The notes beneath the pieces were generated by a model, which was not told the DNA's origin, did not search any database, and saw nothing but the letters and a program-made list of their open reading frames with translations. Shown one piece after another: positions 21,793 to 62,925 of a stretch of DNA of 64,000 nt. Position numbers and translations under genes: made by a program. The DNA is from Alphaproteobacteria bacterium. GTDB lineage: Bacteria; Pseudomonadota; Alphaproteobacteria; MPNO01; UBA2964. The stretch is taken from the NCBI GenBank assembly GCA_049602055.1, contig JBMYRG010000003.1, forward strand, positions 112,495 through 176,494, given 5' to 3'. The number at the start of each line of letters is the position of its first letter. Position 1 is the stretch's first letter.

Positions 21793-22707
21793 CTATTCGT
21801 AATGTAGAGATTCTGCAGACGAGGTGCGCACGGCAACGACCGCCGGATAAATTGCTGCAACCAGACAGGTCCCAATGCAAATGAGCGAGATAAGTCCCGT
21901 CGCTTGGAATGACACCAAAAAGCGATAATCAAACAAGGTAAAGTGGTCGAGAAATGAGACGCTGACGGCGCCCAGGATATTCCCGATGATTGCCGCGAGA
22001 AAGGCACCGACAAATCCCACGATTAGCCCTTCTGCGATAAGCATTTTAATAATCTGTAATCGATCCATGCCAATCGTTCGAAAAACAGAAAATTCCCGTT
22101 CACGGCCATGAACCTGTATCAACAAAGTATTCGCAACTCCGATCGTGGCCAGAATGACAGTCATCACCAAAATAAAGTCGAATATCAGGAAATCGCCACA
22201 CACCTCCACAAGATCTTTGTAGCGTTGCCGGGACTCGGCGAGGGCACCTCGAAAGGCACTTCCAAAGGCAGTGTTCCTGCCGATAATGATGACTAGTTTT
22301 TCCGCCGTTACCGGTAATATTTGAAAATCAAAAGTACGGCGTTCTGACTGACCTGATTCAATGTCTTCATGGTCATAGGCAATCGGCACATTAGTGGCCA
22401 ACCCCGCCAAAATGGCCTCACGAAATTTTGGGTCCATTGCGCCAGTGTCACCGAGCCGGAGAACGCCGGCCAGACGGGATGCCTACTCATTCGCGACCAG
22501 TAAATTTCCTGTCATATCGAGAACGGCCACCGGCCCCGGATAAGCGTTAAAAGCCCCCTTATCCGACGCCAATTCCAGAATGGTCTTGTAGCGAGATTTT
22601 CCGCTACTCATAAAATTGGAAAACATTGAGGCCATAATCAAATTGTTTGCCGTCAAGCATCGCTTGGACTTTGGACAATTACCCTTCTTGCATTTTTCGT
22701 TGAGCAA
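21793..22707 (-). pseudogene. FtsX-family ABC permease remnant (MacB/LolE-like). It is N-terminally truncated and carries an in-frame TAG at 22483..22485.
   Basis: The C-terminal FtsX 3-TM domain is intact (VILATIGVANTLLIQVHGREREFSVFRTIGM...). The same frame continues upstream through one TAG (…LLVANE*ASRLAG…). The frame is closed at 22732, so TM1 is missing. No partner ATPase is present. Confidence 0.5.
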
Positions 22708-24517
22708 TTGGCTTGCGCCGGCGTAACTCTTCTACAGACACCACAGTGGCTTCAGCGCTTACATTCTTGCCTGAGATTTTGAAACTCGGCTTTCCGAACA
22801 AATATCCTTGGCCAAACCGAACCTCGCAGGCCCGAAACATCTCAGCCGTTTCCCCGTCTTCAACCATTTCAGCAATTGTCGCGATACCGAGATCGTGGCA
22901 TAGACCAGTCACCGCCTTGAGAAAGGCACGGTTACGTTCATTGCAGGCTGCCCCTCGGACATACTGACCATCGATTTTGACAACATCGACTTCTAGAGCG
23001 TGCAGGTAACGCAAAGCGGCCGCGCCGGCCCCAAAGTCATCGAGACACACCTGATGACCAACACGTCTTAAACCCTGAATAAAGCGATTTGCGGCCCCCA
23101 AATCTTCGATACCGGCAGATTCGGTAATTTCGAAAAGAATTTGCTGCCGAACCTTACTGGCGCGTTCGAGCTGATCATGTAACGCCGCAATAAAGGCGGT
23201 ATTCGCAAGCGATTGGCCTGACACGTTCATCGCAACAGAATACTAATTACCTTTGGCTTTCATGGCCTGTAACCAATCAAGAACTCGAGCGCACATTGCC
23301 AGATCAAAGTCAGCAATGATGCCGGTGTTTTCTGCAAAGGTGATCAAATGATAGGACGAATCTTCGATTTTTTTGTTAAATTGGGCGAGCGCCTCATAGT
23401 GATGCAACGACCCATCAGCCAACGAAACGATGGGCTGAAACGCTACATCAAATTTGCCATGATCCAGGATCTCCCTAAATCTGGAAAGCGTCTCTTTATT
23501 CTCCCGGGTGAGCTTTTCAAGATTGCCTGAAAGGCTGGTCATGTCGAAATCGTCACCCTGACGATCACAAAATCCATTGACGGTGTAGAGCATCACCCAA
23601 ACAGAATCCGCCTCGCTCAACCCTCCAATATCTGCGTCGACCGTCCCGGATTTAACCGTAACGCCGTCACCACTCGGATCTGCCGTACGGAATATTTCTT
23701 CAACTCTGTTGGTAATACGGGCGACGTCGAAGGCGTCGTCATGAAGAAAACCGAAGGCCCCTTCATCTAATTGGCCTGCGGTTTGACCAGCTGCTGAACT
23801 GGCCTGCAAACCGGCCCCCATCGACCGTATAAGAGTTTCAGAGCTTTCATGATCAAGGCGATCCCGAAATTCATCGAGATCCCCCGTATGGATCATCGTC
23901 AGTTTTAAATGTTCACCTCGACTTTGAGCTTCATGAATTTGTCGACTGGCGATCTCAGCGAAGGCTTCTTTCTTTAAAAGCCCGGTGTCTGAATCTCTAT
24001 CGGCATCAGCCGAAATCTCTATAGCTGGATTAACCCGGGATAAGCGAAACGCAAAATAATGATGCCCTGGCATATCCGGCAGGTGATATCCAGTCATCAA
24101 AACCGGCAATGCTGACCCCGACATACCCGCAAGCTGAACCTGGGTAGGGTCCAGTCGTGTTCCGGGTGACATGCTGGAAAGGAGTTCCTGCACCAAACCC
24201 TGTTTTTCAGGATGAAGGAGAGCCATGAATTCGGTGCCCACGAGAGCTTCCGGCGCAGCACCCATGAGTGACTACGTTGCACCGGCGGCGAACGAGATTT
24301 TTTGCTCGGCGTTGGTTTCAATAAGGATATCAGCAGCGCAGAATGCTAAAGCGACAAACCGGTCACGTTCGCGGCGGAGAGATTCGACATAACCAGAGAC
24401 GCCGCTCTGCTGTGATTCCGTTGCCGTCATGATAAACCCGTGTGCGATTTTGAACGCTAAAGTAGACGCTCCGTGATAGTAAGGCGCAGGGCTTAACGAT
24501 TCGTTGTCCTGCGGCAA
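22679..24517 (-). pseudogene. PAS / degenerate-GGDEF / EAL c-di-GMP phosphodiesterase-type gene with two in-frame TAG codons (24272..24274 and 23243..23245)
   Basis: Three consecutive same-frame ORFs. The PAS-like N-terminus is continuous across the first TAG (…FAAGAT*SLMGAAPEALVGTEFMALLHPEKQ…). The EAL domain is continuous across the second (…DWLQAMKAKGN*YSVAMNVSGQSL…). The GGDEF is degenerate (QLDEGAFGFL). EAL motifs FQPIV…EAL and DDFGAG are present. Confidence 0.55.
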
Positions 24518-24562
24518 TTATTTCAAGCAACATCGACCTCAACCCTGACTAGAAGAAGCAAG

Positions 24563-25252: not shown

Positions 25253-25351
25253 TTTTCAGCGCCCCTATGAGTTGACAGAACTATGGCTGTAACTATGGTG
25301 CGGAAACCGTTTTTTAATCCAAAATACTCGGCGAGGAACAGGTAGAACAAG

Positions 25352-26209
25352 ATGAGCAGCAGCGACCTTCAATCAACAATAGATCAAGCATGGGAAGACC
25401 GGGACTCCGTTTCACCCAGCACAACGGGCGACGTTCGCGATGCCATCGAAGCCGCTCTCAACGGTCTGGATTCTGGAAAATTCAGAGTAGCCGCAAAATC
25501 AGGCAGCGGCTGGCAGGTCGAACAGTGGCTTAAAAAGGCCGTCCTGCTCTCTTTCCGTTTGTTTGACAATGCTCCAATGCCAGGTGGGCCAACCGACCCC
25601 GTTCGGGGCGAAACGCCCTGGTTCGATAAGGTAGCGCCCAAGTTTGCTGGCTGGGACGACGCCCGTTTCCGCGATGCGGGTTTCAGGGCAGTCCCTAACT
25701 GTACGGTCCGACGGGGATCATATATCGCCCCTGGTGTTGTTCTCATGCCGAGTTTTGTGAATATCGGCGCCTATGTCGACTCCGGTACCATGGTCGACAC
25801 CTGGGCAACCATTGGCTCCTGCGCACAAATTGGCAAAAACTGTCATATTTCTGGCGGTGTCGGTATCGGCGGTGTGCTAGAACCTCTCCAGGCCGAGCCC
25901 GTTATCATCGGCGATAACTGCTTCATCGGTGCCCGATCCGAAGTCGCTGAGGGCGTCATCGTCGAAGATGGCGCCGTATTATCGATGGGCGTCTTCCTTG
26001 GCGCTTCGACGAAAATTATTGACCGCGCAACGGGTGAAATTCACCTCGGCACCGTCCCGGCCTATTCTGTTGTTGTTCCCGGTACCATTGCTGGAAAGGA
26101 ACTACCCGACGGCACACCGGGGCCAAACCTTTACTGCGCCGTCATTGTTAAACGGGTTGATGAAAAAACCCGGTCACGCACCTCCATAAACGATCTGTTA
26201 CGCGATTGA
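25352..26209 (+). CDS. dapD: 2,3,4,5-tetrahydropyridine-2,6-dicarboxylate N-succinyltransferase
   Basis: 285 aa. Hexapeptide-repeat left-handed beta-helix region and the DapD N-terminal domain. Followed by dapE. Confidence 0.9.
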
Positions 26210-27947: not shown

Positions 27948-28678
27948 GTCACTTCGGTCAGGAACAGTCCCTCTGGAGGCGCGGTTGGACCTCCTTTGGT
28001 TCTATCACGAGCCGCAAGCGCTTCACTGATATCGTCAGCGGTCCATTTTCCTTCACCAACCAGTTTCAATGTACCTACGAAATTACGAACCTGGTGATGC
28101 AAGAAGGAGGGCGCGCTGGCGCATATATCAATAACCTCACCATCACGAGACACATCGAGAGATATCAAGGTTTTGACCGGCGTTTTCGCTTGGCACATGC
28201 TTGCCCGAAAAGTTGAGAAATCGTGTTTCCCAATCAATCGTTGGGCGGCTTCATGCATTGCCCCAGCATCGAGCTCTACGCCTACATGCCACGCTAAATA
28301 TCTCTGAGTCGCTAATGGCGATCGTCGATTAATAATCCGGTAGCGATAGGATCGTGCCTGCGCCGAGAACCGCGCATGAAACTCCTCAGAAACGGCAACC
28401 GCCTGAAGCACCGATATCGGGTTTGGTCGCAAATGTGCATTGAGGGCGTCACGTACCGTATTGGCATCCGTATCGCGATGAATATCAACGTGCGCTGCCT
28501 GCCCCAATGCGTGAACACCGGCGTCAGTTCTCCCCGCGCCCTGCACAACGACAGTTTCACCGCAAAAGGCATGAACCGCTTTTTCCAGCTCCTCTTGGAT
28601 CGAGGGTCCGTTGTCCTGCCGCTGCCAACCTACATAATCCGTTCCATCATATTCGATCACAAGGTGATAGCGTGTCAT
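27926..28678 (-). CDS. truA: tRNA pseudouridine(38-40) synthase
   Basis: 250 aa. [18 protein letters not shown] and the RTDAGVHA catalytic Asp motif. Confidence 0.9.
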
Positions 28679-29619
28679 GAACCATCCCCTTGAGGGGATT
28701 GTAAAACAGTCCCTACGGGCAAGTCATAACCCCGCAAGAAGGCTTCCGCATCGGTTGCCGATTTTCCCGGTCGTTGCATTACCAAGGGTCGGATCGCACC
28801 CTCTCGACAAGCAATCACGGCGTTCTGTGTCAGAACTGTACCGGCGTCCCCATTATTTTCCACACATTCCGCAGACAAAATTCGAATTCGGTCGCCATTG
28901 CGTTCGAACCAGGTCCCGGGCCAGGGATTCAGCGCACGGATCTTTCGCTCAACTTCAATCGCCGGCTGGTGCCAATCTAGGAGGCCCTCTTCACGAGTTG
29001 TTTTCGCCGCGTAGGTCACCCCGTCTTCCGGCTGGATCTTTGGCTCAATGTTTCCTGACAGCAAGTCAGTCAATGCACAACAGACTGACGTTGCGCCAAC
29101 CTGCGCAAGTTCATCATGCAAACCCTCCGTGGTCGTTTCCGGCCCGATCGGTACCCGGTCCTGTCTTAAGATGGGTCCCGTATCAAGACCTTCATCCATC
29201 TGCATGATGGTGACACCTGTCTCGTCATCTCCAGCCATGATGGCGCGCTGGATCGGGGCCGCCCCGCGCCAACGCGGCAGCAGGGAAACATGAATATTGA
29301 TACAGCCCAAACGGGGGGCTTCAAGAACAGCTTTGGGCAGTATCAAGCCATAGGCCATCACAATGGCCAAATCAGCGTTAAGCGCCACAAAGTCCGAGAC
29401 CGTCTCGGTCTTTTTAAAGGTCTCCGACGTCCGCACTGGAATGCCACGGCCTTCAGCGAATTTATGAACCGGTGACGGCGTTACTCGATGTCCGCGCCCT
29501 GAGGGTCTTGGTGGCTGGCTATAGACGCAGACAACGTCATGCCCACCTTCGATGAGCGCAGCCAAGGCGGGCACTGCGATCTCGGGCGTACCCATAAAGA
29601 CAAGGCGCATTGTTGCCAT
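28675..29619 (-). CDS. fmt: methionyl-tRNA formyltransferase
   Basis: 314 aa. Formyltransferase N-terminal domain with [14 protein letters not shown]. Overlaps truA by 4 nt. Forms a def-fmt operon. Confidence 0.9.
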
Positions 29620-29624
29620 ACGCG

Positions 29625-30143
29625 CTACGTCACCGCCCCTGACTTTTTGAGTTTGGACATTTTGCGGAGGATCATATTACGCTTGAGCATTGAAATGTGA
29701 TCGACGAAGAGTTTGCCATCAAGGTGATCCATCTCATGCTGAATACAGGTCGACAATAGCCCCTCGGCTTCGATTTCCTGAACCTCATTATTATAATCCA
29801 AATACCTGACGCTCACCTTCGCTGGGCGCTCCACTTCTGCATATTGATCTGGAAAGGACAAACAGCCTTCGTCATAGACTGCGAGATCGTCTGAAGAGTC
29901 GAGAATTTCAGGGTTCGCCATTCGGATCGGGGATCGATCTGTATCCCCCCGTGACGTATCAACGACAATGACCCGTTTATGCACTGAAACCTGGGGTGCC
30001 GCCAACCCGACACCTGGCGCGGCATACATTGTCTCCAACATATCGTCCATCAATGTCCTGATCTCATCATTAACCTCCTCGACTGGCGCACAGCACTTTT
30101 TAAGGATTGGATCAGGTGCTTTTATGATCGGGAGAACAGCCAT
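29625..30143 (-). CDS. def: peptide deformylase
   Basis: 172 aa with the three PDF motifs GVGLAAPQV, EGCLS, HEMDHL. Confidence 0.9.
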   Translation of the reverse strand: MAVLPIIKAPDPILKKCCAPVEEVNDEIRTLMDDMLETMYAAPGVGLAAPQVSVHKRVIVVDTSRGDTDRSPIRMANPEILDSSDDLAVYDEGCLSFPDQYAEVERPAKVSVRYLDYNNEVQEIEAEGLLSTCIQHEMDHLDGKLFVDHISMLKRNMILRKMSKLKKSGAVT

Positions 30144-30294
30144 TTTGTGCCGCGCAACCTCTTTAAAACCAAACAGCGATGTAGGTAGGCCCTAGCGCCC
30201 GTGAGGTCAAGAACAGAGCCAATAAAACAGGCGGCCCTTGATTCGCTAAGTCCCGTGATAGGATTTCGATCCATAACATTTTGGGGCGGCGAAT

Positions 30295-31419
30295 ATGGAT
30301 ATCATTTCGATCATCGCGATTGCTGTTGCGGTCGTTCTCGCGGCAGCGCTCGCCGTGCTTATCCTGCGCAGCAACCCAAAATCCTCCGACCCCCAGGCAG
30401 AACTGATTGGCCGCCTGGCGCAAATGGCTGAAACCAATGCCGCGCAACAAGCTCAGCTCGCAGAACGATTACAGGCGCAAGAGCGGGCCCTAAGCAGGAC
30501 ATTGGAAGAACGGCTTACCGATCTATCAAAACGGATCGGCGATAATTTGCAGCAAAGCACGACAAAAACCGGCGAGACCATGACAAAGTTGCAAGAGCGG
30601 CTCGCCGTCATTGACGCTGCACAAAAAAATATCACCGAGCTGTCCACGCAGGTGGTCAGTCTTCAGGACGTTTTATCGAACAAACAGGCCCGCGGTGCAT
30701 TTGGCGAAATACAATTGCAAGATCTCGTAAAAAACGTCCTGCCACCTTTTGCCTATGGATTTCAGACGACTCTTGGAAATGGCAAGCGGGCTGATTGCGT
30801 CATTCATCTGCCAAACCCACCTGGCTCTATCGTTATCGATGCAAAATTCCCCTTGGAAAGCTATCGAGCTCTGGCTGACGCCACTGACGATGCCGGACGG
30901 GTGGTGGCAGGACGTCAATTGATCACCGACGTTAGTAAGCACGTCAATGATATCGCTGACCGCTACATCGTCCCAGGCGAAACAGCAGAATCAGCCTTAA
31001 TGTTCCTGCCTTCCGAAGCGGTTTATGCGGAACTCCACGCTAATTTCGCGAAAGTCATGGAACATTCCTATGCCAAGCGCGTCTGGATTGTGTCGCCAAC
31101 GACATTGATGGCGACGCTCAATACAGTTCGGGCAATCCTCAAAGATGCTCAGATGCAGGAGCAGGCAAGTGTGATCCAAAATGAAGTCCTGACCATGCTG
31201 GGAGATGTTGGACGTCTCGATCAGCGGGTCGAAAATCTCGAAAAACATTTTGGAATGGCGGAAAAAGATTTGCGCGAAATTCGTATTTCAGCAGAGAAAG
31301 TGTCTAAAAGAGGCGAACGCATCACCGAAATAGAGTTGGGCGAAGCAGGAGAAGAGGCAGACGCCATCGACCATGTCACAGGTGATGGCATCGCCAGTAT
31401 CCACCGTATCGGAAAATAA
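30295..31419 (+). CDS. rmuC: DNA recombination protein RmuC
   Basis: 374 aa. N-terminal TM, long coiled coil, C-terminal RmuC nuclease-like domain. Confidence 0.8.
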   Translation: MDIISIIAIAVAVVLAAALAVLILRSNPKSSDPQAELIGRLAQMAETNAAQQAQLAERLQAQERALSRTLEERLTDLSKRIGDNLQQSTTKTGETMTKLQERLAVIDAAQKNITELSTQVVSLQDVLSNKQARGAFGEIQLQDLVKNVLPPFAYGFQTTLGNGKRADCVIHLPNPPGSIVIDAKFPLESYRALADATDDAGRVVAGRQLITDVSKHVNDIADRYIVPGETAESALMFLPSEAVYAELHANFAKVMEHSYAKRVWIVSPTTLMATLNTVRAILKDAQMQEQASVIQNEVLTMLGDVGRLDQRVENLEKHFGMAEKDLREIRISAEKVSKRGERITEIELGEAGEEADAIDHVTGDGIASIHRIGK

Positions 31420-31481
31420 CAGGAGCGCCGACCATACAAGCGATACTGGGCATTTTTGTTCTTCTATTTTGCGCTTGGTTT

Positions 31482-32669
31482 ATGAGCGAAAATCGACGCG
31501 CCCTTCCGATTCGTACGCTGATCGCAGGGCTCTCCCTGCAAATCTGCTTAGCGCTTGTTCTTTTAAAGGTACCACTCGCCCGTGAAGGTTTCCTGGCGCT
31601 AAACGGCATTGTCACCGCCCTACAACAAGCAACACAGGAAGGTACTTCGTTTCTGCTCGGCTACCTTGGCGGCGGCAAACTTCCGTTTGAGGTAAAGCCT
31701 GGAAGTAGCGCGTTTATACTGGCTTTTCAGGCCTTGCCTCTGGTTCTTGTCATTAGTGCCCTTTCGGCATTGCTGTATTACTGGCGAATTCTGCCCGCAA
31801 TCGTTCGCGGCTTCGCCTGGTGTCTGAGAAAGACGCTCGGCGTTGGTGGCACCGCCGGTGTCAGTACAGCTGCCAACGTATTTGTCGGGATGGTGGAAGC
31901 GCCTCTATTGGTTCGACCATATCTCGCTAAGGCAACACGTAGCGATCTGTTCGTCATAATGGTTGCCGGCACGGCGACCATCGCAGGAACCGTTATGGTT
32001 CTATACGCAACTTTTTTGAACGGCGTTATTCCCGACCCAATCGGCCACTTACTCACGGCTTCCATCCTAAACGCGCCGGCTGCCATCGTCATTGCGCGGT
32101 TGATGATACCGCCAGCAACGACCGAAGAAGAAACGTCGATTAGGCTTGAGAGCCAGTATCAAAGCTCTATGGATGCCGTCACCAAAGGAACGCTCGACGG
32201 GCTGACATTACTCCTCAATATCTGCGCGATGCTTATTGTTGTCGTTGCGTTGGTCGCCTTGGTCAATGCTGGTCTCGGATTACTGCCGCATTGGGGCGGC
32301 AGTGCGATAACCTTACAGGGCCTGTTTGGATATCTCATGGCACCGATCGCCTGGCTGATCGGCATTCCCTGGGCGGAAGCCGGGACGGCCGGTAGCCTGC
32401 TGGGGACCAAGATCGTGTTGAACGAGTTCCTCGCTTACCTTGGCATGGCCCAAACCCCAAATTCCGATCTCAGCGACCATAGCAAGCTGATCATGACCTA
32501 TGCCTTATGTGGCTTCGCAAACTTTCAAAGCCTCGGCATCATGATCGGGGGATTGGGGGCAATGGCTCCCGAAAGACGAAGCGAAATCATTGGGCTTGGT
32601 ATGCGCTCAATCGTGGCCGGCGTCATGGCCACCTGCATGACAGCCGCTTTGGTCGGTATAATTTTCTAA
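31482..32669 (+). CDS. concentrative nucleoside transporter (NupC / CNT family). The real start is probably upstream, near 31434.
   Basis: 395 aa from the first ATG. NupC-family core is present. The in-frame upstream stretch IQAILGIFVLLFCAWF encodes the expected TM1. There is no ATG/GTG/TTG in that stretch. An ATA codon lies 8 nt downstream of an AGGAG SD. Confidence 0.75.
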   Translation: MSENRRALPIRTLIAGLSLQICLALVLLKVPLAREGFLALNGIVTALQQATQEGTSFLLGYLGGGKLPFEVKPGSSAFILAFQALPLVLVISALSALLYYWRILPAIVRGFAWCLRKTLGVGGTAGVSTAANVFVGMVEAPLLVRPYLAKATRSDLFVIMVAGTATIAGTVMVLYATFLNGVIPDPIGHLLTASILNAPAAIVIARLMIPPATTEEETSIRLESQYQSSMDAVTKGTLDGLTLLLNICAMLIVVVALVALVNAGLGLLPHWGGSAITLQGLFGYLMAPIAWLIGIPWAEAGTAGSLLGTKIVLNEFLAYLGMAQTPNSDLSDHSKLIMTYALCGFANFQSLGIMIGGLGAMAPERRSEIIGLGMRSIVAGVMATCMTAALVGIIF

Positions 32670-32670
32670 C

Positions 32671-33979: not shown

Positions 33980-34303
33980 TCAAATCGGAAGGTTCATACC
34001 CGGAGGCAGGTTAAGACCACCTGTGATCTTGGACATTTCCTCGGCAACACGAACCTCCAGTTTTCCTTTCGCATCAGAAAAAGCAGCAACGATCAGATCC
34101 TCAACAACCTCTGCATCATTTGAATTGAAAAGCGTTGGGTCGATATGCAGACCAAGCATTTCGCCTTTGCCATTTAGGCGCACCGTCACCATACCACCCC
34201 CGGAGGCGCCGGAAATTTCCAGCTCAACAAGCTTTTCCTGCATTTCCTGCATTTTGGTCTGCATTTCCTGGGCCTGCTTCATCATCTGGCCAAGATTCTT
34301 CAT
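33980..34303 (-). CDS. ybaB: nucleoid-associated protein YbaB/EbfC
   Basis: 107 aa, conserved YbaB fold, between dnaX and recR. Confidence 0.9.
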
Positions 34304-36120
34304 GAGTCTGCCTTTTCAGTTACGGTGTCATCATCTGTATCATCTTCTTCGACCGAGTCAGGAAATTCTTCGGGGACCCGTTCGATAACGGCTTCAACTG
34401 TCGCACCAGGAAACGCCTCGAGAGCTGCCTGCACCAACGGATGACTGGTTGCCCTACCCCGCCGCGCCGCTTCCTTGGCGTCCAACTGTTCGCGGATTGT
34501 TGGCTCACCTGCTTCTTCTGAAAGGCTGACAAGCCATTGATCACCGGTCCATTCGTTCAAAAACTTACTAACCCGTGTCGCGAGGTCAGAAGGCGCAGCC
34601 GGTTCCGTTCTCAGCGCGATGTGCCCTGGCTCAAATCTCACGAGATGGACATGATTGACCAACGTCGCATGCAAAATTCCTTCGCGGCATTCTTCAAACA
34701 TCGCAACAATCTGCTCAAAGCTTTGGAATCTGGTACTCTGCTCGTACACTACAGGGGCTTGTTGCGTTTCCTGTATGGGGGGGAGCGGCTCCGGATCTTC
34801 CATCGGTGTCTGTTGCGGCATCGCATCGTGCCCCCTCATGCCACCAGCCATACGCGCTCCCCCATCGTCCTGTGAAGCATTTGATGGTGAAAGTGATGGC
34901 GCTGACGTTGACGGTGCTGTCGCGGGACTCGTTGGATTATCTTTTAAGGTGCGTACCAAATCTGCCGGGCTTGGCATATCGGACATATAGGCCAGCCGGA
35001 TCAGTACCATTTCCGCGGCCTGCGCGGATGACGGCAGACTTTGGACCTCACTTAACCCTTTGAGCAGCAATTGCCAGGTCCGGCCTAACACCGGAACGGA
35101 CAGCGTCTCGGCGAGCGACAGACCGCGCTGGCGGTCCATCTGCGAAATACCCTGACCTTCGGCGGCGGAAGGCGATAATTTAATCCGGGTGAGCCAATGG
35201 GTCAGCTGCAGGAGATCCTGTAAAACAATCGCTGGATCGGCACCTGCATCATAAAGCTGATTAAATATATTCAGCGCTTCATCGACGGTCCCCTGCATCG
35301 CCGCGGCGAAAAGGTCGTAAATCAGACCTCCATCTGCCAGGCCAAGCATTTCGCGGACAGCTTCCTCGGAAACTTCGTCACCGTCAGCATTTCCAGCATG
35401 GGCGATAGCCTGATCAAGTAACGACAAGCCATCACGCACCGAGCCATCTGCGGCGCGGGCGATCAACCCCATCGCCCCTTCCGCAACCGTCGCCGACTCT
35501 TGCTTTGAAACAGAGTTAAAATGAGCAATCAAGGTTTCTGCATCGACACGCCTCAGATCAAACCGTTGACATCGAGACAAGACTGTGACCGGGACTTTTC
35601 GGGTTTCTGTCGTCGCAAAGATGAATTTCACATGCTCTGGGGGTTCCTCCAGCGTCTTCAAAAGCGCATTGAAAGCGCTTGAAGACAGCATATGCACCTC
35701 ATCGATAATATATATCTTGAAACGGGCATCTAGCGGCCGATAGCGGACACCGTCAATAAGCTCCCTAATATCATTGACCCCCGTCCGACTGGCGGCATCC
35801 ATCTCAATAACATCTACATGCCGATCTTCGGTAATCGCCAGACAATGAGCGCAGACGCCACACGATTCCGGGGTGGGCCCACCATTTCCTTCCGCGCCGA
35901 TGCAATTGAGCGCGCGTGCGATGATCCGGGCCGTACTAGTTTTGCCGACACCACGAACACCCGTCAGAATAAACGCATGAGGTAATCGATCTGCGTGAAT
36001 GGCATTGGTCAGCGTCCGCACCATCGCATCCTGACCAATTAACTCGGCAAAGGTCCGGGGCCGGTACTTCCGGGCGAGAACGCGATACGGCTGAGGAGAC
36101 GGTGTATCGTCGGTTGCCAC
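34300..36120 (-). CDS. dnaX: DNA polymerase III subunits gamma and tau
   Basis: 606 aa. Walker [10 protein letters not shown], zinc module CxxC…CxxC, DEVH Walker B, C-terminal tau domains. Confidence 0.9.
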
Positions 36121-36177: not shown

Positions 36178-36283
36178 CCGGTGGGAGGCTGGACTGACGA
36201 CCCGAGAAAGACTCGTTACGGCTGCTTCCTTCCGGACCTGACCGGGTTAGCGAGGATCTCGTCCATCGCCAACCTCCCACCGA
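36178..36283 (-). ncRNA. ffs: signal recognition particle RNA (4.5S, ffs)
   Basis: Minus-strand sequence GGTGGGAGGTTGG…CCGGTCAGGTCCGGAAGGAAGCAGCCGTAACGAG…CCAGCCTCCCACC. It contains the universally conserved domain IV motif and closes with complementary 5' and 3' ends. Located upstream of dnaX, as is common. Ends are within about 3 nt. Confidence 0.7.
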
Positions 36284-52547: not shown

Positions 52548-52551
52548 TTAG

Positions 52552-53617: not shown

Positions 53618-54616
53618 TTGATACTTTGCGGAAAAACAATGTCATTAGACATAGAGTATAATGATATGAAGCCGAACGAAATCGTTAAGAAGGCGCAGGA
53701 TTTCGAGATTATCTGGGACAAAGGCGATCGCGCCCGCTGGGAGGGAGTCTCAAGCCAGGCTGGTCGATCGTCCCTTGAGCAATCCTGGATATACGGGGAA
53801 GCCGTTCGCGATCATTACTGCATGTCCATAAAACGGGCGGTAATACGCTCGGATGACAGGACGCTCGGTATATTTCAAATCTTCCAGAAACGGTTCATGG
53901 GCATTGCAACCTTAAGCCGTCTTGTACGTGGCCCGATATGGCTGGACCAGCAAGAAGAGGCAATGGCGGCAATTGCAAACTCGTTCTCACTCCCGCGCCG
54001 CAATCTTCTTTTCTGATCGCCAGAGCTTTCCGACACGCCAGAACATCTCGGTCAGATGCGTAAAATCGGCAAACGTCGAATGGTCACCGGCCTCAGTACC
54101 ACGTGGCTGGATATTTCAAAAACTGATGAGGAGTTGATGGAAGGCTTTTCAGGCAACTGGCGCAACATGTTGCGTGCAGCTGACAGAGCCAATCTTAAGA
54201 TCAGAATGAGGGATGACGGTAAGGGGGTCAGCACCCACCTGTCTGCCTATGAAGCGTTTCGTCAGCAAAAAAAGTTTGTCGGACCGCCGAGCGGATTGAT
54301 TCAGGCGATGAGCGATAACGGTCGCAAAGAAGACATCATCACCCTAACCGCAGGGACACCTCAACAGATCGTCGCGGGTGTCCTTTTTGTCTGCCACGGC
54401 AATAGCGCGACCTATTACACCAGCTGGAATACCGATGAAGGCCGTAACAGCCGGGCCCACAACCTTCTTCTTTGGCAAGCCCTTCAGGAACTCCGCGGCC
54501 ACGGAATCCGCTGGCTCGACCTTGGGGGTCTTAATACAGAATCAGCGGCTGGCATCGCCCGCTTTAAAATAGGCCTTGGTGGCGAGATCGTGACCCTCTC
54601 CGGCACTTACCTTTAA
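53618..54616 (+). pseudogene. FemAB-like / BioF2-like GNAT acyltransferase (Acetyltransf_6 type) split by a single in-frame TGA at 54014..54016
   Basis: Two same-frame ORFs. Read-through gives …ANSFSLPRRNLLF*SPELSDTPEHLGQMRKIGKRRMVTGL…, a continuous FemAB-family sequence. The N-terminal half carries SWIYGEA…GPIW, the C-terminal half the GNAT core. Confidence 0.5.
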
Positions 54617-54622
54617 GAATGA

Positions 54623-55177: not shown

Positions 55178-55415
55178 AGTAAAATTTTATTTTTTGTCTT
55201 ATTGAGGTGAAGATGGGTTACCTTTGTATTTAATTTCAGGAAAAAATATTTATAATTTTATATATTTTTAAATAAACTTTTGAATATTAACTATATATTT
55301 TCTTTTATTTCAGCTGTTAATTGAACATTAAAATATACCTTCACTTCACAGTGAATTTTTATTTTTAAAATTTTCACGAAAAGAAACCCGAAATCTATGG
55401 TTAACGGGCAGACAG
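55178..55415. promoter_or_regulatory. about 240-bp AT-rich (>75% A+T) intergenic island with the palindrome TTCACaGTGAA
   Basis: It is upstream of the sleB-like gene and downstream of the monooxygenase gene. Composition is sharply atypical for the window. Likely promoter / UP-element or nucleoid-protein binding region. Confidence 0.4.
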
Positions 55416-56567
55416 CTATATCTCTATCGAGGTCGCATCAAAGGTAAACAACCAGTCATACCGCTCGCGCACTTTATCGGGTTGCCATTCGGTATCGACG
55501 TACCTCTGAGCTACAACCGGATCACCAAGCTGCGAATTATGAAATCGGTCTGCATTTTCATTTGAACCGCGGATCGTCCTGGCCGTGCGCTCAAGTCGTA
55601 ACGCTTCATAGCGTTGCAGTCCTGCTTCAACGTCGGACCCAAATTTCTCAATACACCGCGCCAGTACCATACCGTCTTCAATCGCCATCACCGCGCCTTG
55701 CGCCAGCATCGGCACCATGGCGTGACAGGCATCCCCAAGAAGAGTGATACGGCCCTCTGTCCAGCGTTCCATCGGCTCCCGGCGCATTAATGCCCATTTG
55801 TAGGGGATATCGATATTCTTGATCATGGTGTGAACGGTGTCATGCCAGCCTTCAAAATCAGCGAGACATTCCTCTGTCGTACCACGTGCCGTCCAGGATT
55901 CCACTGTCCAGCTATCTTTTTCCAGAATTCCAACGAAGTTTAATAAGGCACCATGGCGCACGAAGTAATGAACAATATGACCACCGGGTCCAACCCAGTT
56001 GGTGCCGACGGGTCGGACCAGCCCTTTCGGCAAATCATTGGCATCGATGATTCCGCGCCAGGCCAGCAGTCCGGAAAAGGTTTTATCTTCTTCGCCAAAC
56101 AGCGTCTGGCGGATATTGGAATGGGCGCCATCGGCGCCGATCAAGACATCACCAGAGACATCATCGTTATCTCTGAGGTGAAGGGTTACCCCAGTGTCAT
56201 CCTGACTACATTCGGTACAAAAGGCATTCAGGTGAATGGCATCAGATTTCTCTGCCCGTACCGCATCAACGAGTAACTGGTGAAGATCGGCCCGGTGGAA
56301 CATCAGATAAGGAAAGCCATAACGTTCAACGGATTCCGCGCCGAGATCAAACAGCTTCCAGGTCTGTCCCGAATTCCACATACGGATTTCTTTGCCACTC
56401 GGCTGCCAAGCGATCTTTTCCATCGCTTCGCCCAGACCGAGATAGGACAGGACCCGAGTGCCGTTGGCACTCATCTGGAAACCAGCACCAATTTCACCAA
56501 GCTGAGGGGCTTGTTCGAAGACGTCAACGTCGATGCCACGTTTGAGCATAGCCAAAGCAGCGGTCAA
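55416..56567 (-). CDS. FAD-dependent aromatic monooxygenase (salicylate / 3-hydroxybenzoate hydroxylase-like). The true start is likely at 56615.
   Basis: 383 aa from the TTG. DG and GD FAD motifs are present. The Rossmann motif HVLVAGAGIGGL is encoded in-frame upstream of the first ATG/GTG/TTG. An ATT codon at 56613..56615 lies 8 nt after a GAGGA SD and 1 nt after the aldolase stop. Confidence 0.8.
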   Translation of the reverse strand: MTAALAMLKRGIDVDVFEQAPQLGEIGAGFQMSANGTRVLSYLGLGEAMEKIAWQPSGKEIRMWNSGQTWKLFDLGAESVERYGFPYLMFHRADLHQLLVDAVRAEKSDAIHLNAFCTECSQDDTGVTLHLRDNDDVSGDVLIGADGAHSNIRQTLFGEEDKTFSGLLAWRGIIDANDLPKGLVRPVGTNWVGPGGHIVHYFVRHGALLNFVGILEKDSWTVESWTARGTTEECLADFEGWHDTVHTMIKNIDIPYKWALMRREPMERWTEGRITLLGDACHAMVPMLAQGAVMAIEDGMVLARCIEKFGSDVEAGLQRYEALRLERTARTIRGSNENADRFHNSQLGDPVVAQRYVDTEWQPDKVRERYDWLFTFDATSIEI

Positions 56568-56616
56568 TCCGCCGATACCGGCACCGGCGACCAGGACATG
56601 TGGGTTATCAGGAATT

Positions 56617-57336
56617 TTAAAGGTCCTCGCAACCCGCCCGGCGGCTGAGATATTCCCAGATTCGCTTATGACCGACGGTGGAAATTTTTGCTTTGTTTAA
56701 GGCGGCGTCAATTTCACCCTCAGACAAGAACTTTACCACCCCCATTTGCATAGCGGTGGTCTGAACCCGCGCATTGACGACTGCGTAGATCGCTGTCGTC
56801 ACCACTGTATGCAACGCCTCAGTGGCAACGGTGAGTCCGTGACCCCGCATGAGGACAAGACGGTTATCGCCAAGCGTCTCTGCCAGATCACGGCCATGAT
56901 CCATGTTTACGACCAGCATATCCGTATCGCCAAACTTGTCAGCTATATCCCAGACCGGGACTTCCTTGCCCATCCGCGACGCATTGTGAAACACTGGCTT
57001 CAATGGCACCGATGTAATACCAAATGGCAGAAGTGCCTCCGAATGGCTGTGAACCACGCCATTGACCTCAGGATGAAGTTCATAAACGGCGGCGTGAATA
57101 AAACGTTCTAGATAACCAGTCGATCCGTCCGGATCGATCATGTCACCAGAGAAGTCGAATTCCCGAATATCATCCAGCGTCACCAGCTCCGGGCTACGAG
57201 ACCGCGACAACAAAAACCGTTCTGGGTTTTCAGGATGACGCGCACTCACATGGCCGAAGCCATCCACAACTCCCTGATGCGCCAGAATTCGGTTCGCCAC
57301 CACGAGGTCACGACGCAGCTCATCCAGTTCAGACAT
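56617..57336 (-). CDS. class II aldolase / adducin family protein
   Basis: 239 aa. N-terminal ANRILA…GHVSARHP and metal-binding His residues typical of class II aldolases / decarboxylases. Confidence 0.8.
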   Translation of the reverse strand: MSELDELRRDLVVANRILAHQGVVDGFGHVSARHPENPERFLLSRSRSPELVTLDDIREFDFSGDMIDPDGSTGYLERFIHAAVYELHPEVNGVVHSHSEALLPFGITSVPLKPVFHNASRMGKEVPVWDIADKFGDTDMLVVNMDHGRDLAETLGDNRLVLMRGHGLTVATEALHTVVTTAIYAVVNARVQTTAMQMGVVKFLSEGEIDAALNKAKISTVGHKRIWEYLSRRAGCEDL

Positions 57337-57360
57337 ACGTTTTTACTCTTCGACTTATGA

Positions 57361-58167
57361 TTACTCTTGAACGACGTCGATCCAGATTCCATCGGGATCG
57401 GCCGTTTGATAAGAACCCAGCGCATTGCTGGCAAACAGCTCGCGACGCACCTCAGATTCCTCACTACCACCGAGACGGCGAGATGCCAGAAACGTGTTCT
57501 TTTCCCCTATCCGTTTTTCTTCGGCCTTAAAGGCATCCATATCTTTTACCTTGAACCCAATGTGATCAGGTCCCGGGCGCTTGATCGACATGCCTGCAAA
57601 AATCGAAACACTCCACGGCATGATCGACAGTGTCATCGTGCCATCAGTGAGATGGAAATTCGGGTCGCCTTCCTTGCGGTTGGAAAGCTGAAGTTCAAAA
57701 ACTTCCGAATAAAACTCGGCGCATTTCTCGGCATTCGGTGTACGGATCGCATACCGGTTAAAGGTGCAGTTGGCAGAGCTCTCAACGCCATCGGCGTAAA
57801 CATCGCGAAGATTCTTGCTGCCCTTTTCGGCCAGATCAAACACGTTACCGTCCGGGTCATGTCCTGAATAGGCGGCAAAGGGACGGATTGCGGGGCGTTT
57901 GACACAGGCAGCCCCCTCATAAGCGCCGGCCATACGTTCTTCGACTAGCTCGATACTGTCGACCACCATCCCGAAATGGTCGAGACCACCGACATAACCG
58001 TCCCGCCTCGGTATGATATTCAGACCAAGATTGCCGTCGCTGACAACGGACGCGCTTTCGAAATCATTCCGTCCTGAAGTCTCCAGCCCGAAGACCGATT
58101 GATAATATTTTTGCAAAAACGGGTACTGGTTACTGATAATCGCCATGTGATTGATATGAGCAAACAT
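57361..58167 (-). CDS. two-domain VOC family protein (glyoxalase / extradiol dioxygenase fold)
   Basis: 268 aa, two βαβββ modules with His/Glu metal ligands. Paralog of the next gene. Confidence 0.65.
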   Translation of the reverse strand: MFAHINHMAIISNQYPFLQKYYQSVFGLETSGRNDFESASVVSDGNLGLNIIPRRDGYVGGLDHFGMVVDSIELVEERMAGAYEGAACVKRPAIRPFAAYSGHDPDGNVFDLAEKGSKNLRDVYADGVESSANCTFNRYAIRTPNAEKCAEFYSEVFELQLSNRKEGDPNFHLTDGTMTLSIMPWSVSIFAGMSIKRPGPDHIGFKVKDMDAFKAEEKRIGEKNTFLASRRLGGSEESEVRRELFASNALGSYQTADPDGIWIDVVQE

Positions 58168-58189
58168 TGTCTAACTCCCTGTAAGGATT

Positions 58190-59023
58190 TTATTCTTCTG
58201 ATGCGCCGATATAGACGCCTTCGATATCTGTGAGATGATAATCGTTTAACGGCACGCTTTGGAATAGTCCGAGGCGTGCTTTTCCTTCATCGCCATAGCC
58301 CAGCGGGCGCGAACGCATCAGCGGATTTTGACCGGTTAGATCTTCAAGGTCGTCCTTAAGCGCGTCAATGCTCTCTACTTTAAAGCCGATATGGTCGGGA
58401 CCAAGGCGTTGTGGATCCATGCCGAAATAGTCATCCATATTCCATTGCAGGACCGCGAGGGTCATCCGGCCATCAGACAGATAAAAATTTGGATCGCCCT
58501 CCTTCTTGTTGAGCAGGTTCAACTCAAACACCTCTGAATAAAATTCGGCACAGCGTTCAGCATGGCGGGTGCGCAAGGCGAAATGGCTAAACTTGCGAAC
58601 CGTCTCCTCACGGGCCTCGGAATAGATATCCTTTTGCATCTTCTTTTCCGACAGATCGAAGATGTTTGTATCGGGGTCGTGCGCACTATAGGCCGCGAAA
58701 GGGCGAACGGGTGGCCGTTTTAAGAGCTTGATCGTCGGATCGAACTTATCGATCCGGGCGCGCGCTTCTTCAAGATCTTCAACCTCCAGGCCAAAATGAT
58801 CGAGGCCGCTCGTACGACCTTCGCGCCGTGGAATAATATTCATCCCAACATAGCCATCACTCACGACGACCGCCCGCGCTGGACGCGGGTTCTTCGCAGT
58901 CTTGAGACCAAACAGCGCTTCGTAGAACTTTGCATTAATTGCGTAATGATCCGTACAGATCGCAATGTGATTCAATCGAGCAAACATAGGCCCATCCCGG
59001 CGGTGATCATCATTATTCAGCAA
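58190..59023 (-). CDS. two-domain VOC family protein (tandem paralog)
   Basis: 277 aa, about 45% identical to the previous ORF (MFARLNHIAIC… vs MFAHINHMAII…). Confidence 0.65.
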   Translation of the reverse strand: MLNNDDHRRDGPMFARLNHIAICTDHYAINAKFYEALFGLKTAKNPRPARAVVVSDGYVGMNIIPRREGRTSGLDHFGLEVEDLEEARARIDKFDPTIKLLKRPPVRPFAAYSAHDPDTNIFDLSEKKMQKDIYSEAREETVRKFSHFALRTRHAERCAEFYSEVFELNLLNKKEGDPNFYLSDGRMTLAVLQWNMDDYFGMDPQRLGPDHIGFKVESIDALKDDLEDLTGQNPLMRSRPLGYGDEGKARLGLFQSVPLNDYHLTDIEGVYIGASEE

Positions 59024-59135
59024 ATCCTATCACAGCATTCTTTACCGCCCAACCAATTGAGAATCTACATTTGAAGTCCCGAGATGTCGTGATATCGTCA
59101 CCTCGATTTAGACAAACATAAAAATTTTCAGGGAG

Positions 59136-60179
59136 ATGATAATGAATCGATTATTGATTGCAGCATTACCACTAGCAGGATTGGTACTGGCTGTCCCGGC
59201 CAATGCCGACGCCGTCGCTGATTTTTATAAGGAAAAAACTGTCACAGCCATTTCCGGTGGTGGTGCTGGTGGCGGTTTCTCTTTCGTCGCACGGGTTCTT
59301 GGCCGTCACATGGCCGACAACATTCCCGGCAAACCGACATGGGTTGTGAAAGCTATGCCTGGGGCCGGTGGCGCGCGTTCGATCAAATATATCGTCAATG
59401 CGGCAGCGCAGGACGGCACAACAATCGGAGCGGTTCTGCCGCCATCAATCATTTCACCATTGCTGCGCAAAAATGTTGGTTATGATTCTGCCAAGCTGCA
59501 ATGGATCGGCTCGGTTACTGACCAGGCCTCTGTTCTGGTTGCCTGGAAAACCTCTCCCGCCAAGTCGCTTGAAAAAATCAAAAAAGTTCAAGTAACTACA
59601 GCAACATCCAGCAAATTATCGAGCGGTTATCTGTTCCCGGCCTGGATGAACGCAACCATCGGCACCAAATTCAAGATTATTCCTGGCTATCGCGGTGCTG
59701 ACCGTCAAAACGCCGCCATGGAAACCGGCGAAGTCAATGGTCGCAGCAGCTTCTATAATAGCTTCAAAACAACCAAGCCGCATTGGCTCAAAGATAAGAC
59801 GATCATCCCGCTTGTTTATATGGGACCAAAAACAGTGGACCTTAAGGGTGTCCCTTATATGATGGATTTGATGAAAACCAAGGAACAGCGCGAGATCGCC
59901 AACTTCCTGCAAACCGGCTCTCAAGTCGGTAACGGCTTCTTTGTCTCACCAGCTGTCCCCAAGGCACGTGTCATGGCATTGCGGGCTGCGTTTAACAAGA
60001 CGGTTACCAGCACGGCGTTCCTGGCTGAGGCGAAAAAACGCAGCATGATCGTCGCACCGGTCCGCGGTGAGGAGCTTGATGCGATTGTCGCGGCGGCGAT
60101 GAAAACGTCCCCGGTAACCATCAATAAATTCAAAAAGATGGTCAAAATCGACAAGTTGAAAAGCAAAAAGAAGAAATAG
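59136..60179 (+). CDS. tripartite tricarboxylate transporter substrate-binding protein (TctC / Bug family)
   Basis: 347 aa. Signal peptide, then the ISGGGAGGGFSFVARVL…MPGAGGA pattern of Bug/TctC proteins. No tctA/tctB in the window. Confidence 0.7.
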   Translation: MIMNRLLIAALPLAGLVLAVPANADAVADFYKEKTVTAISGGGAGGGFSFVARVLGRHMADNIPGKPTWVVKAMPGAGGARSIKYIVNAAAQDGTTIGAVLPPSIISPLLRKNVGYDSAKLQWIGSVTDQASVLVAWKTSPAKSLEKIKKVQVTTATSSKLSSGYLFPAWMNATIGTKFKIIPGYRGADRQNAAMETGEVNGRSSFYNSFKTTKPHWLKDKTIIPLVYMGPKTVDLKGVPYMMDLMKTKEQREIANFLQTGSQVGNGFFVSPAVPKARVMALRAAFNKTVTSTAFLAEAKKRSMIVAPVRGEELDAIVAAAMKTSPVTINKFKKMVKIDKLKSKKKK

Positions 60180-60184
60180 AACTG

Positions 60185-61735
60185 ATGCCCGAAGGCACTG
60201 TTAAATTGTCAAATACGGAGGCGGATAGATTCCGCCTCCGTAATTTTGTCGACGCGCTCATTGCCGCCGATGAGCTTGAGATCGTCGAGACGCCTACCGA
60301 GCTTGCTGATCTCACGTCCCACATGGATGGCAATGAAAAAGCTGTCCTATTTCAAAAAGCCGGGCCAGAAGAGGCTGAGATTATCGGCAATGCCGGCGCA
60401 AGCCGATCTCGCCTGGCCCTCGCCTTTGGCGTTGCCGAACCTGATCTGTTACCAGAACTTCTGAAACGGCTCGCCACCAAGCAACCCATTGAGACCATTG
60501 ATAAAGACGATGCACCGGTACAGGAAATCGTCTGGACCGGTGATGAGGCCGACTTCACCAAACTTCCGGTACCGTTCCAGCATGGCCGCGACGGCGGGCC
60601 TTATCTCTCCGCGACGCTCGATTTCACGATCAACCCGGAAACCGGAATGACCAATCTTGGCTGCCGCCGCATGATGTTACGCGGCCGCCGTGAAGCAGGT
60701 GTTGATCTCAATGCCCCGAGTGACCTGCGGGCTATCTACGAAGCCGCTTCAAGACGCGGAGAAAAATTGCCCGTCAGCTTTGTCCTCGGCGCCCACCCGA
60801 TAGATTATGTCGCTGCAACCATGAGAGTCCCGGTTGACGAGACTGGACTGCTCGCCTCCTTGCGCGGCGAACCGCTAAAGCTCGTTAAAAGCATCACCAA
60901 TGACATTCTGGTTCCGGCTGATGCTGAGATGGTGATCGAGGGTTATCTAGACGAACATGGCTATGTCGAAGACGAAGGACCATTCGGAGAATTTGCCGGC
61001 TATTACGGGGTGATGAAAAAGAATCCGGTCTTTCATTTGACCGCCATCACCAAGCGCTCAGACGCTTTATTCCAGACCGCCACAATCAGCGGGCCTTATA
61101 TCGGGCGCACGGACACTGCCGTTCTCAACACGTTAAAATCGGAGGCTGTCGTCTGGCGGGCCCTGCAAACAGCCATCCGCGAGCCGGTAGCCGTCAACGC
61201 GACCGGTGCTGGAGCCGGTATGTTCAATTTGCGGATATCAATGCGACCCCGTGTCCCCGGCGAAGCACAAAACGCCATCGCCGCCGCCTTTGGCTGTCTT
61301 GCCAATGTGAAGAACGTGTTTGTGGTCAATGACGACATTGATATTTTTGACAATGACCAGATGGAATGGGCATTGGCGACACGCTTTCAGCCCGACCGGG
61401 ACCTCGTGGTACAGGGCGGCATGCGAACCCTGCCACTCGACCCTTCTCTTTACGGTGCCAGGGTTGGCTCTAAAGCAGGGTTTGATTTGACTATCCCTAA
61501 CGACAAGAGAAGTTCGATCGAATTCACGGTCCCGGCACCCCCGACAATGTCTGGCGAAAAGTTCGAGAGTGTTCGCGCCGCCCTTGAGGACGGACCGAAG
61601 AGCTACGAACAGCTTATGGGCGCCATCGGTACCCGCGATGGCCGCGACGTCGTTCTGGCACTCGATGAAATCCGTTCGGAAGGAAATCTCAGCCGATTGA
61701 AAGAGGGCGAATACTGCCTAAGTGATAAGGGCTGA
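60185..61735 (+). CDS. UbiD-family (prFMN-dependent) decarboxylase
   Basis: 516 aa. UbiD N-terminal domain, conserved VVNDDIDIFDNDQMEWALATRFQPDRDL segment, about 60-aa C-terminal extension. No ubiX nearby. Confidence 0.8.
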   Translation: MPEGTVKLSNTEADRFRLRNFVDALIAADELEIVETPTELADLTSHMDGNEKAVLFQKAGPEEAEIIGNAGASRSRLALAFGVAEPDLLPELLKRLATKQPIETIDKDDAPVQEIVWTGDEADFTKLPVPFQHGRDGGPYLSATLDFTINPETGMTNLGCRRMMLRGRREAGVDLNAPSDLRAIYEAASRRGEKLPVSFVLGAHPIDYVAATMRVPVDETGLLASLRGEPLKLVKSITNDILVPADAEMVIEGYLDEHGYVEDEGPFGEFAGYYGVMKKNPVFHLTAITKRSDALFQTATISGPYIGRTDTAVLNTLKSEAVVWRALQTAIREPVAVNATGAGAGMFNLRISMRPRVPGEAQNAIAAAFGCLANVKNVFVVNDDIDIFDNDQMEWALATRFQPDRDLVVQGGMRTLPLDPSLYGARVGSKAGFDLTIPNDKRSSIEFTVPAPPTMSGEKFESVRAALEDGPKSYEQLMGAIGTRDGRDVVLALDEIRSEGNLSRLKEGEYCLSDKG

Positions 61736-61767
61736 TAAAACAGAATAACCAGGGCGGCGCTAAAACG

Positions 61768-62925
61768 ATGGCTGATCAGTTTTTCGACACGATCCCTGCC
61801 TTCACGGAATTCAAGGAAGTCGTCCAGAAAGATCGATACCGACCCTTGCCCGAAGACTGGCTCATCGGCGTCGCTGATGTCGTCAACTCCACAGGTGCTT
61901 TGCAGGCCGGACGGTACAAGGCTGTAAAAATTGTCGGTGCCAGTGTCATATCCGCGATCATGAATCTCGATAGAGATGCGTCCTTCCCTTTCGTCTTTGG
62001 TGGCGATGGTGCCGCGTTCGCCGTGCCAGAAAGCCGTCAAGATGACGTTGCTGAAGCCCTTGCCGGGTGTCAACGCTGGGCAGAGGAAGAGATTGATCTG
62101 GAACTACGCGCTGCGCTGGTACCGGTGCGCGATGTTTTGGCCGCCGGCAAACAGGTAAGCGTCGCCCGATTTCAGGTTTCGCCGGGTGTCGCCTATGCAA
62201 TGTTTTCTGGTGGCGGAATCGCCTGGGCCGATGCCGCTATGAAAGCTGGTGACTATACCATCGACCCGGCGGCACCGGGTACCCGTCCCGATCTCAACGG
62301 ACTGTCCTGCCGCTGGCGGCCAATGGAATCACAGAACGGCGAAATTCTCTCGTTACTGGTTATCCCACGCGATCCTGAAACCGAAGTCGAATTTGCAAAA
62401 CTGGTCGAAGAAATTCTCTCGATCCTGAACCGCGAAGCCGAGCGTGATGGACATCCTGTCGCCCCGGATGGACCGACCTATTCTTGGCCACCCTAGGGAC
62501 TAGGCATTGAAGTCAGCGCGTCACGGGGTACGAAGTCTAAACTCAGCCGTACGCTCGCCATTATCGGGGAACAGGCGGTACCCTGTTTTCTCGAACTGTT
62601 TGGTGGTCGGCTCAAACGCTTCGATCCCGCGCGTTACAAGCTTGAAACCACGCAAAACACGGATTTTCGCAAATATGATGACGGACTCAAATTGACCGTC
62701 GATTGCAAAACGGAAACGATTTCAGAGATCGAGAAAATTCTCTCAGCGGCTCAGGAAACCGGCACGGCCTTTTTCGGCCTTTATCGACAGGATAGCGCTG
62801 TAATGACCTGCATCGTCCCATCACCCTTTACCAACGACCACATCCATTTTGTCGATGGTGGTTCGGGGGGATATGCACTGGCCGCCGTGCAGCTCAAAAA
62901 AGCCATAGCGGCAGCCAGCGATTAA
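61768..62925 (+). pseudogene. DUF3095-like protein (nucleotide-cyclase-like fold?) with one in-frame TAG at 62494..62496
   Basis: Frame stays open from 62497 to 62925 (…PDGPTYSWPP*GLGIEVSASRGTK…TVDCKTETISE…). Total is about 385 codons. The N-terminal half has VVNSTGAL…FVFGGDGAAFAVP, reminiscent of class III cyclase / GGDEF folds. Confidence 0.5.

Follow-up and report, generated by a model that had tools for sequence, protein, structure and literature searches.

Probable strain-level gene decay and putative conserved near-cognate start codons in a 64-kb genome segment of an uncultured marine alphaproteobacterium

The locus and its relatives

The subject of this analysis is a 64,000-nt stretch (hereafter the window; G+C content, 51%) of contig JBMYRG010000003.1 from an uncultured marine alphaproteobacterium, whose nearest relatives are metagenome-assembled genomes (MAGs) labelled Alphaproteobacteria UBA2964 and Rhodospirillaceae SP3. 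A 41-kb part of it, with roughly 40 genes, had been flagged in an earlier sequence-only reading as a cluster of point-disrupted genes. Four in-frame TAG codons and one in-frame TGA interrupt a two-gene sensor/EAL signalling operon, a FemAB/GNAT-like gene and a DUF3095 gene, and ATA and ATT stand where the starts of a NupC-family nucleoside transporter gene and of a 3-hydroxybenzoate-6-monooxygenase-like gene are expected. All seven codons were found at the positions and on the strands given by that reading (Table 1; all positions refer to the whole window). We consider it quite probable that the stops represent ordinary strain-level gene decay and that ATT and ATA are conserved non-AUG starts of intact genes.

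An origin in Escherichia coli was rejected, as megablast gave no match. Relatives of the window were recovered by exact-protein look-ups and two collection scans, and their contigs carry L-numbers here. The same strain is represented by L005, L006, L167, and L168, contigs of Logan run SRR27204701 that are 100% identical to the window save for one mismatch and that contain all seven flagged codons. Sister strains from other samples are L001 (99.9% identity to the window), L003 (99.2%), L146 (99.0%), and L004 (96.8%). L007-L012 and L087 belong to other species, syntenic with the window at 70-84% nucleotide identity; these are uncultured marine Alphaproteobacteria (MAG labels UBA2964, Rhodospirillaceae SP3, and others) and one TARA contig. 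The proteins encoded at 59136-60179 and 60185-61735 found no match by exact-protein look-up, so that position 62494, next to them, is not covered by any close strain.

Table 1. Genes, flagged stop codons, and RNA features of the window
Feature	Coordinates	Strand	Details
Degenerate-GGDEF/EAL (cyclic di-GMP [c-di-GMP] phosphodiesterase-type) pseudogene	22679..24430	-	Pfam EAL 1.5e-57; TAG 24272-24274 and 23243-23245
Remnant gene: PAS-type sensor N-terminus and C-terminal FtsX permease domain	21793..22635	-	FtsX match residues 154-271 only; TAG 22483-22485
FemAB/GNAT (Acetyltransf_6)-like gene	53639..54616	+	Pfam matches; interrupted by TGA 54014-54016
DUF3095 gene	61768..62925	+	Interrupted by TAG 62494-62496
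NupC-family nucleoside transporter gene, apparently intact	31421..32669	+	AGGAG 31421-31425, 8-nt spacer, candidate ATA start 31434
3-Hydroxybenzoate-6-monooxygenase-like FAD (flavin adenine dinucleotide) monooxygenase gene, apparently intact	55416..56628	-	GAGGA 56628-56624, 8-nt spacer, candidate ATT start 56615-56613
Stop 24272, window TAG	24272-24274	-	L003 and L146 CAG; L087 Gln
Stop 23243, window TAG	23243-23245	-	L003 TAG too; L087 Asp
Stop 22483, window TAG	22483-22485	-	L003 GAG (Glu)
Stop 54014, window TGA	54014-54016	+	L004, L009, and L010 TGG
Stop 62494, window TAG	62494-62496	+	CAG/CAA in 6/6 related species, within 'SWPPQGLGIE'
Aromatic-catabolism-like gene cluster	55416-61735		3-Hydroxybenzoate-6-monooxygenase-like, class II aldolase / 3,4-dihydroxyphthalate-decarboxylase-like, two VOC/glyoxalase-fold, a 347-aa gene, UbiD-family decarboxylase
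Signal recognition particle (SRP) RNA (ffs)	36181-36277	-	Rfam
tRNA-Arg(ACG)	1706-1782	-	Rfam

Non-canonical codons at two gene starts

The NupC gene has no ATG, GTG, or TTG between its upstream in-frame stop and ATG 31482, either in the window or in L146, and its L087 counterpart has no canonical codon over the 40 upstream codons examined. Position 3 of the NupC profile falls on residue 3 counted from the ATA, and a start at ATG 31482 would remove the first transmembrane helix. At the aligned position L146 likewise has ATA, and L087, L088, L089, and L095 (68-82% amino acid identity) have ATT; in these relatives, the codon lies 7-8 nt past a GGAG-type or G-rich ribosome-binding stretch. An ATT or ATA start is thus conserved across a clade at identities of at least 68%; about 70 more distant homologues (65% identity or less) all have a canonical start at the same codon or up to six codons upstream. 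Between the window and L146, the gene differs by seven synonymous and three conservative changes, and by this comparison it appears intact and under purifying selection.

The monooxygenase ATT begins 1 nt past the stop codon of the upstream aldolase gene, and that TAA (56619-56617) lies within the spacer separating GAGGA from ATT. The monooxygenase frame is closed in the window by another TAA 28 codons upstream of the ATT; between this TAA and TTG 56567 there is no ATG, GTG, or TTG, and the same holds in L004. The TTG itself lies inside the GxGxxG-L FAD-binding motif. Among seven genomes compared at 70-97% nucleotide identity, the aligned codon is ATT in L008, L009, L010, and L012, ATC in L004, and ATG in L007, and in all relatives it lies 1-2 nt past the upstream stop and 8 nt past GAGGA or GAGGG. 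The codons that follow preserve the pattern x-x-x-Pro-His with synonymous variation across relatives, and because the protein is conserved in this way, the Pro-His codons are probably translated. Position 6 of the NCBIfam 3-hydroxybenzoate-6-monooxygenase profile corresponds to residue 5 counted from ATT. This gene, too, appears intact and under purifying selection, and the closeness of its ATT to the aldolase stop suggests that its translation is probably coupled to that of the aldolase gene.

Two features of the relatives weigh against an ATT start of the monooxygenase. In L007, L009, L010, and L012 the frame remains open upstream, with GTG, TTG, or ATG about 30-40 codons up and inside the aldolase gene, and initiation may lie upstream in these genomes; the window and L004 are closed there by a stop. 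In L008 (OX638326.1), a 1-nt deletion, aligned to 56590-56615, puts the ATT out of frame. The only possible start left in L008 is a TTG at the position of the window's CTG 56594, reflecting either a real shift of the start or a MAG assembly indel. CTG 56594 was considered as the monooxygenase start and rejected, since L012 has CTA there and the one relative with TTG is L008, with its 1-nt deletion. The aldolase stop also bears a likeness to the prfB frameshift site (Shine-Dalgarno - CUU UGA C), in that the window reads GAGGAC CTT TAA A there and the monooxygenase is encoded in the +1 frame. The Shine-Dalgarno spacing differs from that of prfB, however, and a prfB-type +1 frameshift joining aldolase and monooxygenase was likewise rejected, the Leu codon being CTT in the window and CTA, CTC, or TTG in relatives, so that the slippery site is not conserved.

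The sequence-only reading had taken both genes to have lost canonical starts, which would leave them silent or would shorten their products at the N-terminus, with translation beginning at ATG 31482 and TTG 56567. Public gene calls do use exactly these two codons, giving products of 395 and 377 aa. Nevertheless, we regard true start loss as improbable. The codons for the first NupC transmembrane helix, all upstream of ATG 31482, and those for the monooxygenase Pro-His and the β1 strand of its Rossmann fold, upstream of 56567, vary synonymously among species while the encoded protein sequence is conserved; translation from TTG 56567 would begin within GxGxxG-L, leaving a product devoid of the FAD-binding motif; and purifying selection acts on both genes. 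The claim of lost starts is refuted by the conservation, in other species, of a near-cognate codon at the same position.

The NupC gene would accordingly be read from AUA (AUU in sister species) and the monooxygenase gene from AUU, as predicted from the comparisons above. In E. coli, AUU, AUA, and AUC initiate at about 1-2% of the level of AUG, and only infC and pcnB have been confirmed to use such starts (10.1101/063800). Staphylococcus aureus has conserved AUU/AUA starts with strong Shine-Dalgarno sequences and about 10-30% of AUG expression (cvfC1, ccpN, and infC; PMC13009471), and AUA can match AUG in vitro within an optimised initiation region (PMC5499595). Further non-AUG starts occur in Deinococcus, for example in dnaA (ATC; PMC2830850). 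If they behave like infC, pcnB, and S. aureus ccpN, near-cognate starts placed 8 nt past a good Shine-Dalgarno sequence would most likely give low expression, sensitive to initiation factor 3 (IF3) and to growth state.

The two genes described here share with known cases (E. coli infC and pcnB; S. aureus infC, cvfC1, ccpN, and citZ; Deinococcus dnaA) an AUN codon at the family-typical N-terminus, a good Shine-Dalgarno sequence at optimal spacing, and conservation across species with occasional alternation among AUG, AUC, and AUA (10.1101/063800; PMC13009471; PMC2830850). They differ in encoding a NupC transporter and a 3-hydroxybenzoate-6-monooxygenase-like enzyme rather than translation or regulatory factors, and in that one of the starts is probably coupled, 1 nt past an upstream stop. 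Nucleoside transporters and aromatic monooxygenases are gene families new for AUU/AUA initiation, which in the present case is a prediction from sequence. The practical consequence is that public gene calls truncate both genes, depriving NupC of a transmembrane helix and the monooxygenase of its FAD-binding motif.

A screen of the window for further non-canonical starts, comparing where alignments begin with the first canonical codon, singled out only NupC and the monooxygenase, although this screen is confounded by gene overlaps conserved in another frame. Two conserved near-cognate starts among about 60 window genes can be set beside genome-wide counts of two confirmed in E. coli, four in S. 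aureus, and at least four in Deinococcus deserti. That AUU/AUA initiation is far commoner in this marine alphaproteobacterial clade than in model bacteria is a speculation to which we give little credence. If it were true, IF3 might discriminate start codons less strictly in these organisms, or translational attenuation of transport and catabolic genes might be widespread; standard gene callers would then systematically mis-start or truncate such genes, and start-codon models for marine MAGs would need revision.

Five in-frame stop codons in four genes

All five stops are in frame and lie in four genes at three loci, and at every site there are relatives with a sense codon; intact orthologues of interrupted genes are present among L004, L007-L012, and L087. 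They fall within conserved domains, as the sequence-only reading had stated: in read-through translations, the EAL domain (residues 318-548, Pfam E=1.5e-57) crosses the 23243 stop, the FemAB and Acetyltransf_6 Pfam matches contain the 54014 stop, and the DUF3095 profile, matched over its full length (1-378/378, E=1.9e-127), crosses the stop at 62494. The alignment with orthologs that had been proposed as a check gives as ancestral CAG at 24272, GAG at 22483, an Asp codon at 23243, TGG at 54014, and CAG or CAA at 62494. Because relatives encode Gln, Glu, Asp, Trp, and Gln at the aligned codons, the five stops are, on this comparative evidence, best read as derived nonsense substitutions. Each stop-creating change is a G:C>A:T or G:C>T:A substitution, and together these substitutions would truncate the products of four genes.

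The sensor/EAL operon carries three of the stops. In L087, the EAL orthologue is intact (581 aa), with Gln and Asp at the positions of 24272 and 23243, and the sensor orthologue runs on past '...VEICGDF' to more than 428 aa. In the window, the sensor gene is a remnant: at about 22189 its PAS-type N-terminus gives way, without change of frame, to the C-terminal ~130 aa of an FtsX permease. This fusion is also found in L003, which has GAG at 22483. The TAG codons at 24272 and 22483 are private to the window strain; the 23243 TAG is common to the window and the independent strain L003, and it is older than the split between the two. The EAL gene differs between window and L003 at eight sites, of which seven are nonsynonymous (one of them the stop) and one synonymous, as against 48 synonymous and 36 nonsynonymous differences (about 1:1) in neighbouring intact genes (Fisher p=0.023); random substitution in these genes would be expected to give 24-29% synonymous and about 3% nonsense changes. 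The EAL gene evolves neutrally. Relaxed selection was measured in this gene, the other three disrupted genes having too few differences or no close strain.

The shared 23243 TAG and the deletion that fused the sensor to the FtsX remnant suggest that the two-gene signalling operon had already lost its function in a common ancestor of the sampled strains. The dead operon would then have drifted neutrally, with the window strain gaining CAG>TAG at 24272 and GAG>TAG at 22483. The sequence-only reading had described every disruption as a single-codon event; this stands for the point stops, but the gene holding 22483 is also a deletion fusion. Recent pseudogenisation limited to substitutions holds for the five stops at ancestral sense codons, subject to three caveats: the greater age of 23243, the placing of three stops in one dead operon, and the deletion in that operon.

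The other two genes have one private stop each. The FemAB/GNAT-like gene is intact in L004 (96.8% nucleotide identity), where it encodes 316 aa, and the truncated 242-aa DUF3095 product is recorded only from Logan SRR27204701. The window strain would independently have acquired TGG>TGA in the former and CAG>TAG in the latter. Two incidental properties of these sites may be mentioned: the C>T change that makes the 62494 TAG also makes an 8-bp palindrome, CCCTAGGG (62491-62498), which contains CCTAGG, and the G>A change at 54016 makes a GATC site. A comparison of the surroundings of all stop sites revealed no common sequence motif.

The window was also screened by tblastn with a greedy non-overlapping set of open reading frames (ORFs) from seven related loci. 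No further internal stop was found between 22.7 and 64 kb, and no frame-shifted match, the latter bearing out the earlier statement that frameshifts are lacking. The actual count is therefore three pseudogenised loci with four genes, and the seven events once seen as a single cluster reduce to these plus two intact genes. Two points weigh against gene decay as the explanation of the stops. With four of about 40 genes disrupted, the flagged 41 kb carries somewhat more pseudogenes than is typical of free-living bacteria, and the sole independent support for the four private stops is the Logan assembly, which may derive from the same run. The disruption density is on the high side but within reach of a window chosen post hoc.

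In most respects, these genes resemble other bacterial pseudogenes arising by nonsense mutation and deletion. The in-frame stops replace codons conserved as sense in orthologues, a dead gene gains further lesions and a neutral substitution pattern, and the affected genes are accessory signalling and envelope genes. There is no essential difference from the usual case; here, the local density is on the high side (four of ~40 genes), and small indels were not seen. The functions that this planktonic strain would be shedding are c-di-GMP signalling, a sensor, a cell-envelope acyltransferase-like gene, and the cyclase-like DUF3095. As a caution, seven look-alike 'disruptions' probably resolve into routine gene decay and start codons unfriendly to annotation.

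It is also conceivable, if improbable, that the four strain-private stops (24272, 22483, 54014, and 62494) arose as errors of consensus, base calling, or assembly in metagenome-derived sequence and that the genes are intact. The window-private alleles are recorded from one run only, Logan SRR27204701, and the sister strains, which come from other samples, encode amino acids at the private stop sites. Base-call artefacts had been among the explanations first suggested, and they are unlikely insofar as the independent Logan assembly reproduces all seven codons with 100% identity across the sites, although its reads are perhaps those of the window itself. Other evidence comes from a three-way comparison over 7.4 kb, in which the window has 41 private single-nucleotide polymorphisms (SNPs), a count of the same order as those of the two sister strains (26 and 25). 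Of the 41, 37 lie within genes, and 19 of these 37 (51%) are synonymous, where random error would give 24-29%; GC>AT and AT>GC transitions are similar in number. Such a pattern is the mark of strains that diverged naturally under purifying selection, and neither random error nor one-directional mutagenesis would produce it. Moreover, two of the four private stops lie in genes whose prior inactivation is shown independently by the shared TAG and the deletion, and no sequence motif is common to the surroundings of the stop sites.

Less credible still is decoding of the stops, whether by an amber or opal suppressor tRNA, by insertion of pyrrolysine or selenocysteine, or by programmed read-through, with the genes remaining functional. 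At three sites, a near-cognate tRNA reading through the stop would insert the ancestral residue (tRNA-Gln at UAG 24272 and 62494, tRNA-Trp at UGA 54014). Stop codons are leaky, and a trickle of wild-type protein is plausible at these three sites, though not as a programmed event. Both TAG and TGA end normal genes, however. Among 72 long ORFs in the window, TAG is the terminator of 15, in keeping with the earlier observation that it closes apparently normal genes (at 598, 4720, 11117, and 12297) and is not globally reassigned, and TGA is that of 28; the TAG-terminated PrpB-like and histidine kinase genes have family-typical C-termini. A single recoding does not fit four different ancestral amino acids, sister strains and species have ordinary sense codons at the sites, and the EAL gene is neutral. 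The window contains neither a tRNA with anticodon CUA, the suppressor that had been proposed for checking, nor one with UCA, its sole tRNA being Arg-ACG, and an Rfam search of the window returned SRP RNA and tRNA-Arg only, with no recoding element such as a selenocysteine insertion sequence (SECIS).

A mutator or chemically mutagenised strain, in which an excess of point disruptions would include two lost ATG starts, can be dismissed with similar assurance: the uniform G:C>A:T or G:C>T:A direction of the stop-creating changes is uninformative because any such change must run towards A/T, the private SNPs of the window, somewhat more numerous (41 vs 26 and 25), are clumped at 28-31 kb in a way that resembles a recombination tract, half of those in genes are synonymous, transitions run similarly both ways, and both 'lost starts' are older than the species.

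Other features of the window

Of the 41 SNPs that set the window apart from L003 and L146, 36 lie in the interval 28000-31200 (truA, fmt, def, and rmuC), and fmt (28675-29619, minus strand) alone has nine private amino acid changes. Along this interval, the outgroup L087 agrees now with the window and now with the other strains, and from its sequence it looks like an imported recombination tract.

The genes from 55416 to 61735 form an aromatic-catabolism-like cluster whose members are listed in Table 1. The SRP RNA lies directly upstream, on the same strand, of a 606-aa ORF (34300-36120), a putative dnaX. A dapE-like (M20-peptidase) ORF has a TTG start at 26206 that shares nucleotides with the stop codon of the hexapeptide-repeat (dapD-like) gene before it; on the sister contig L003 (4330), the public call for the dapE-like gene uses an ATG 44 codons downstream of the TTG, and gene callers are thus inconsistent here too.

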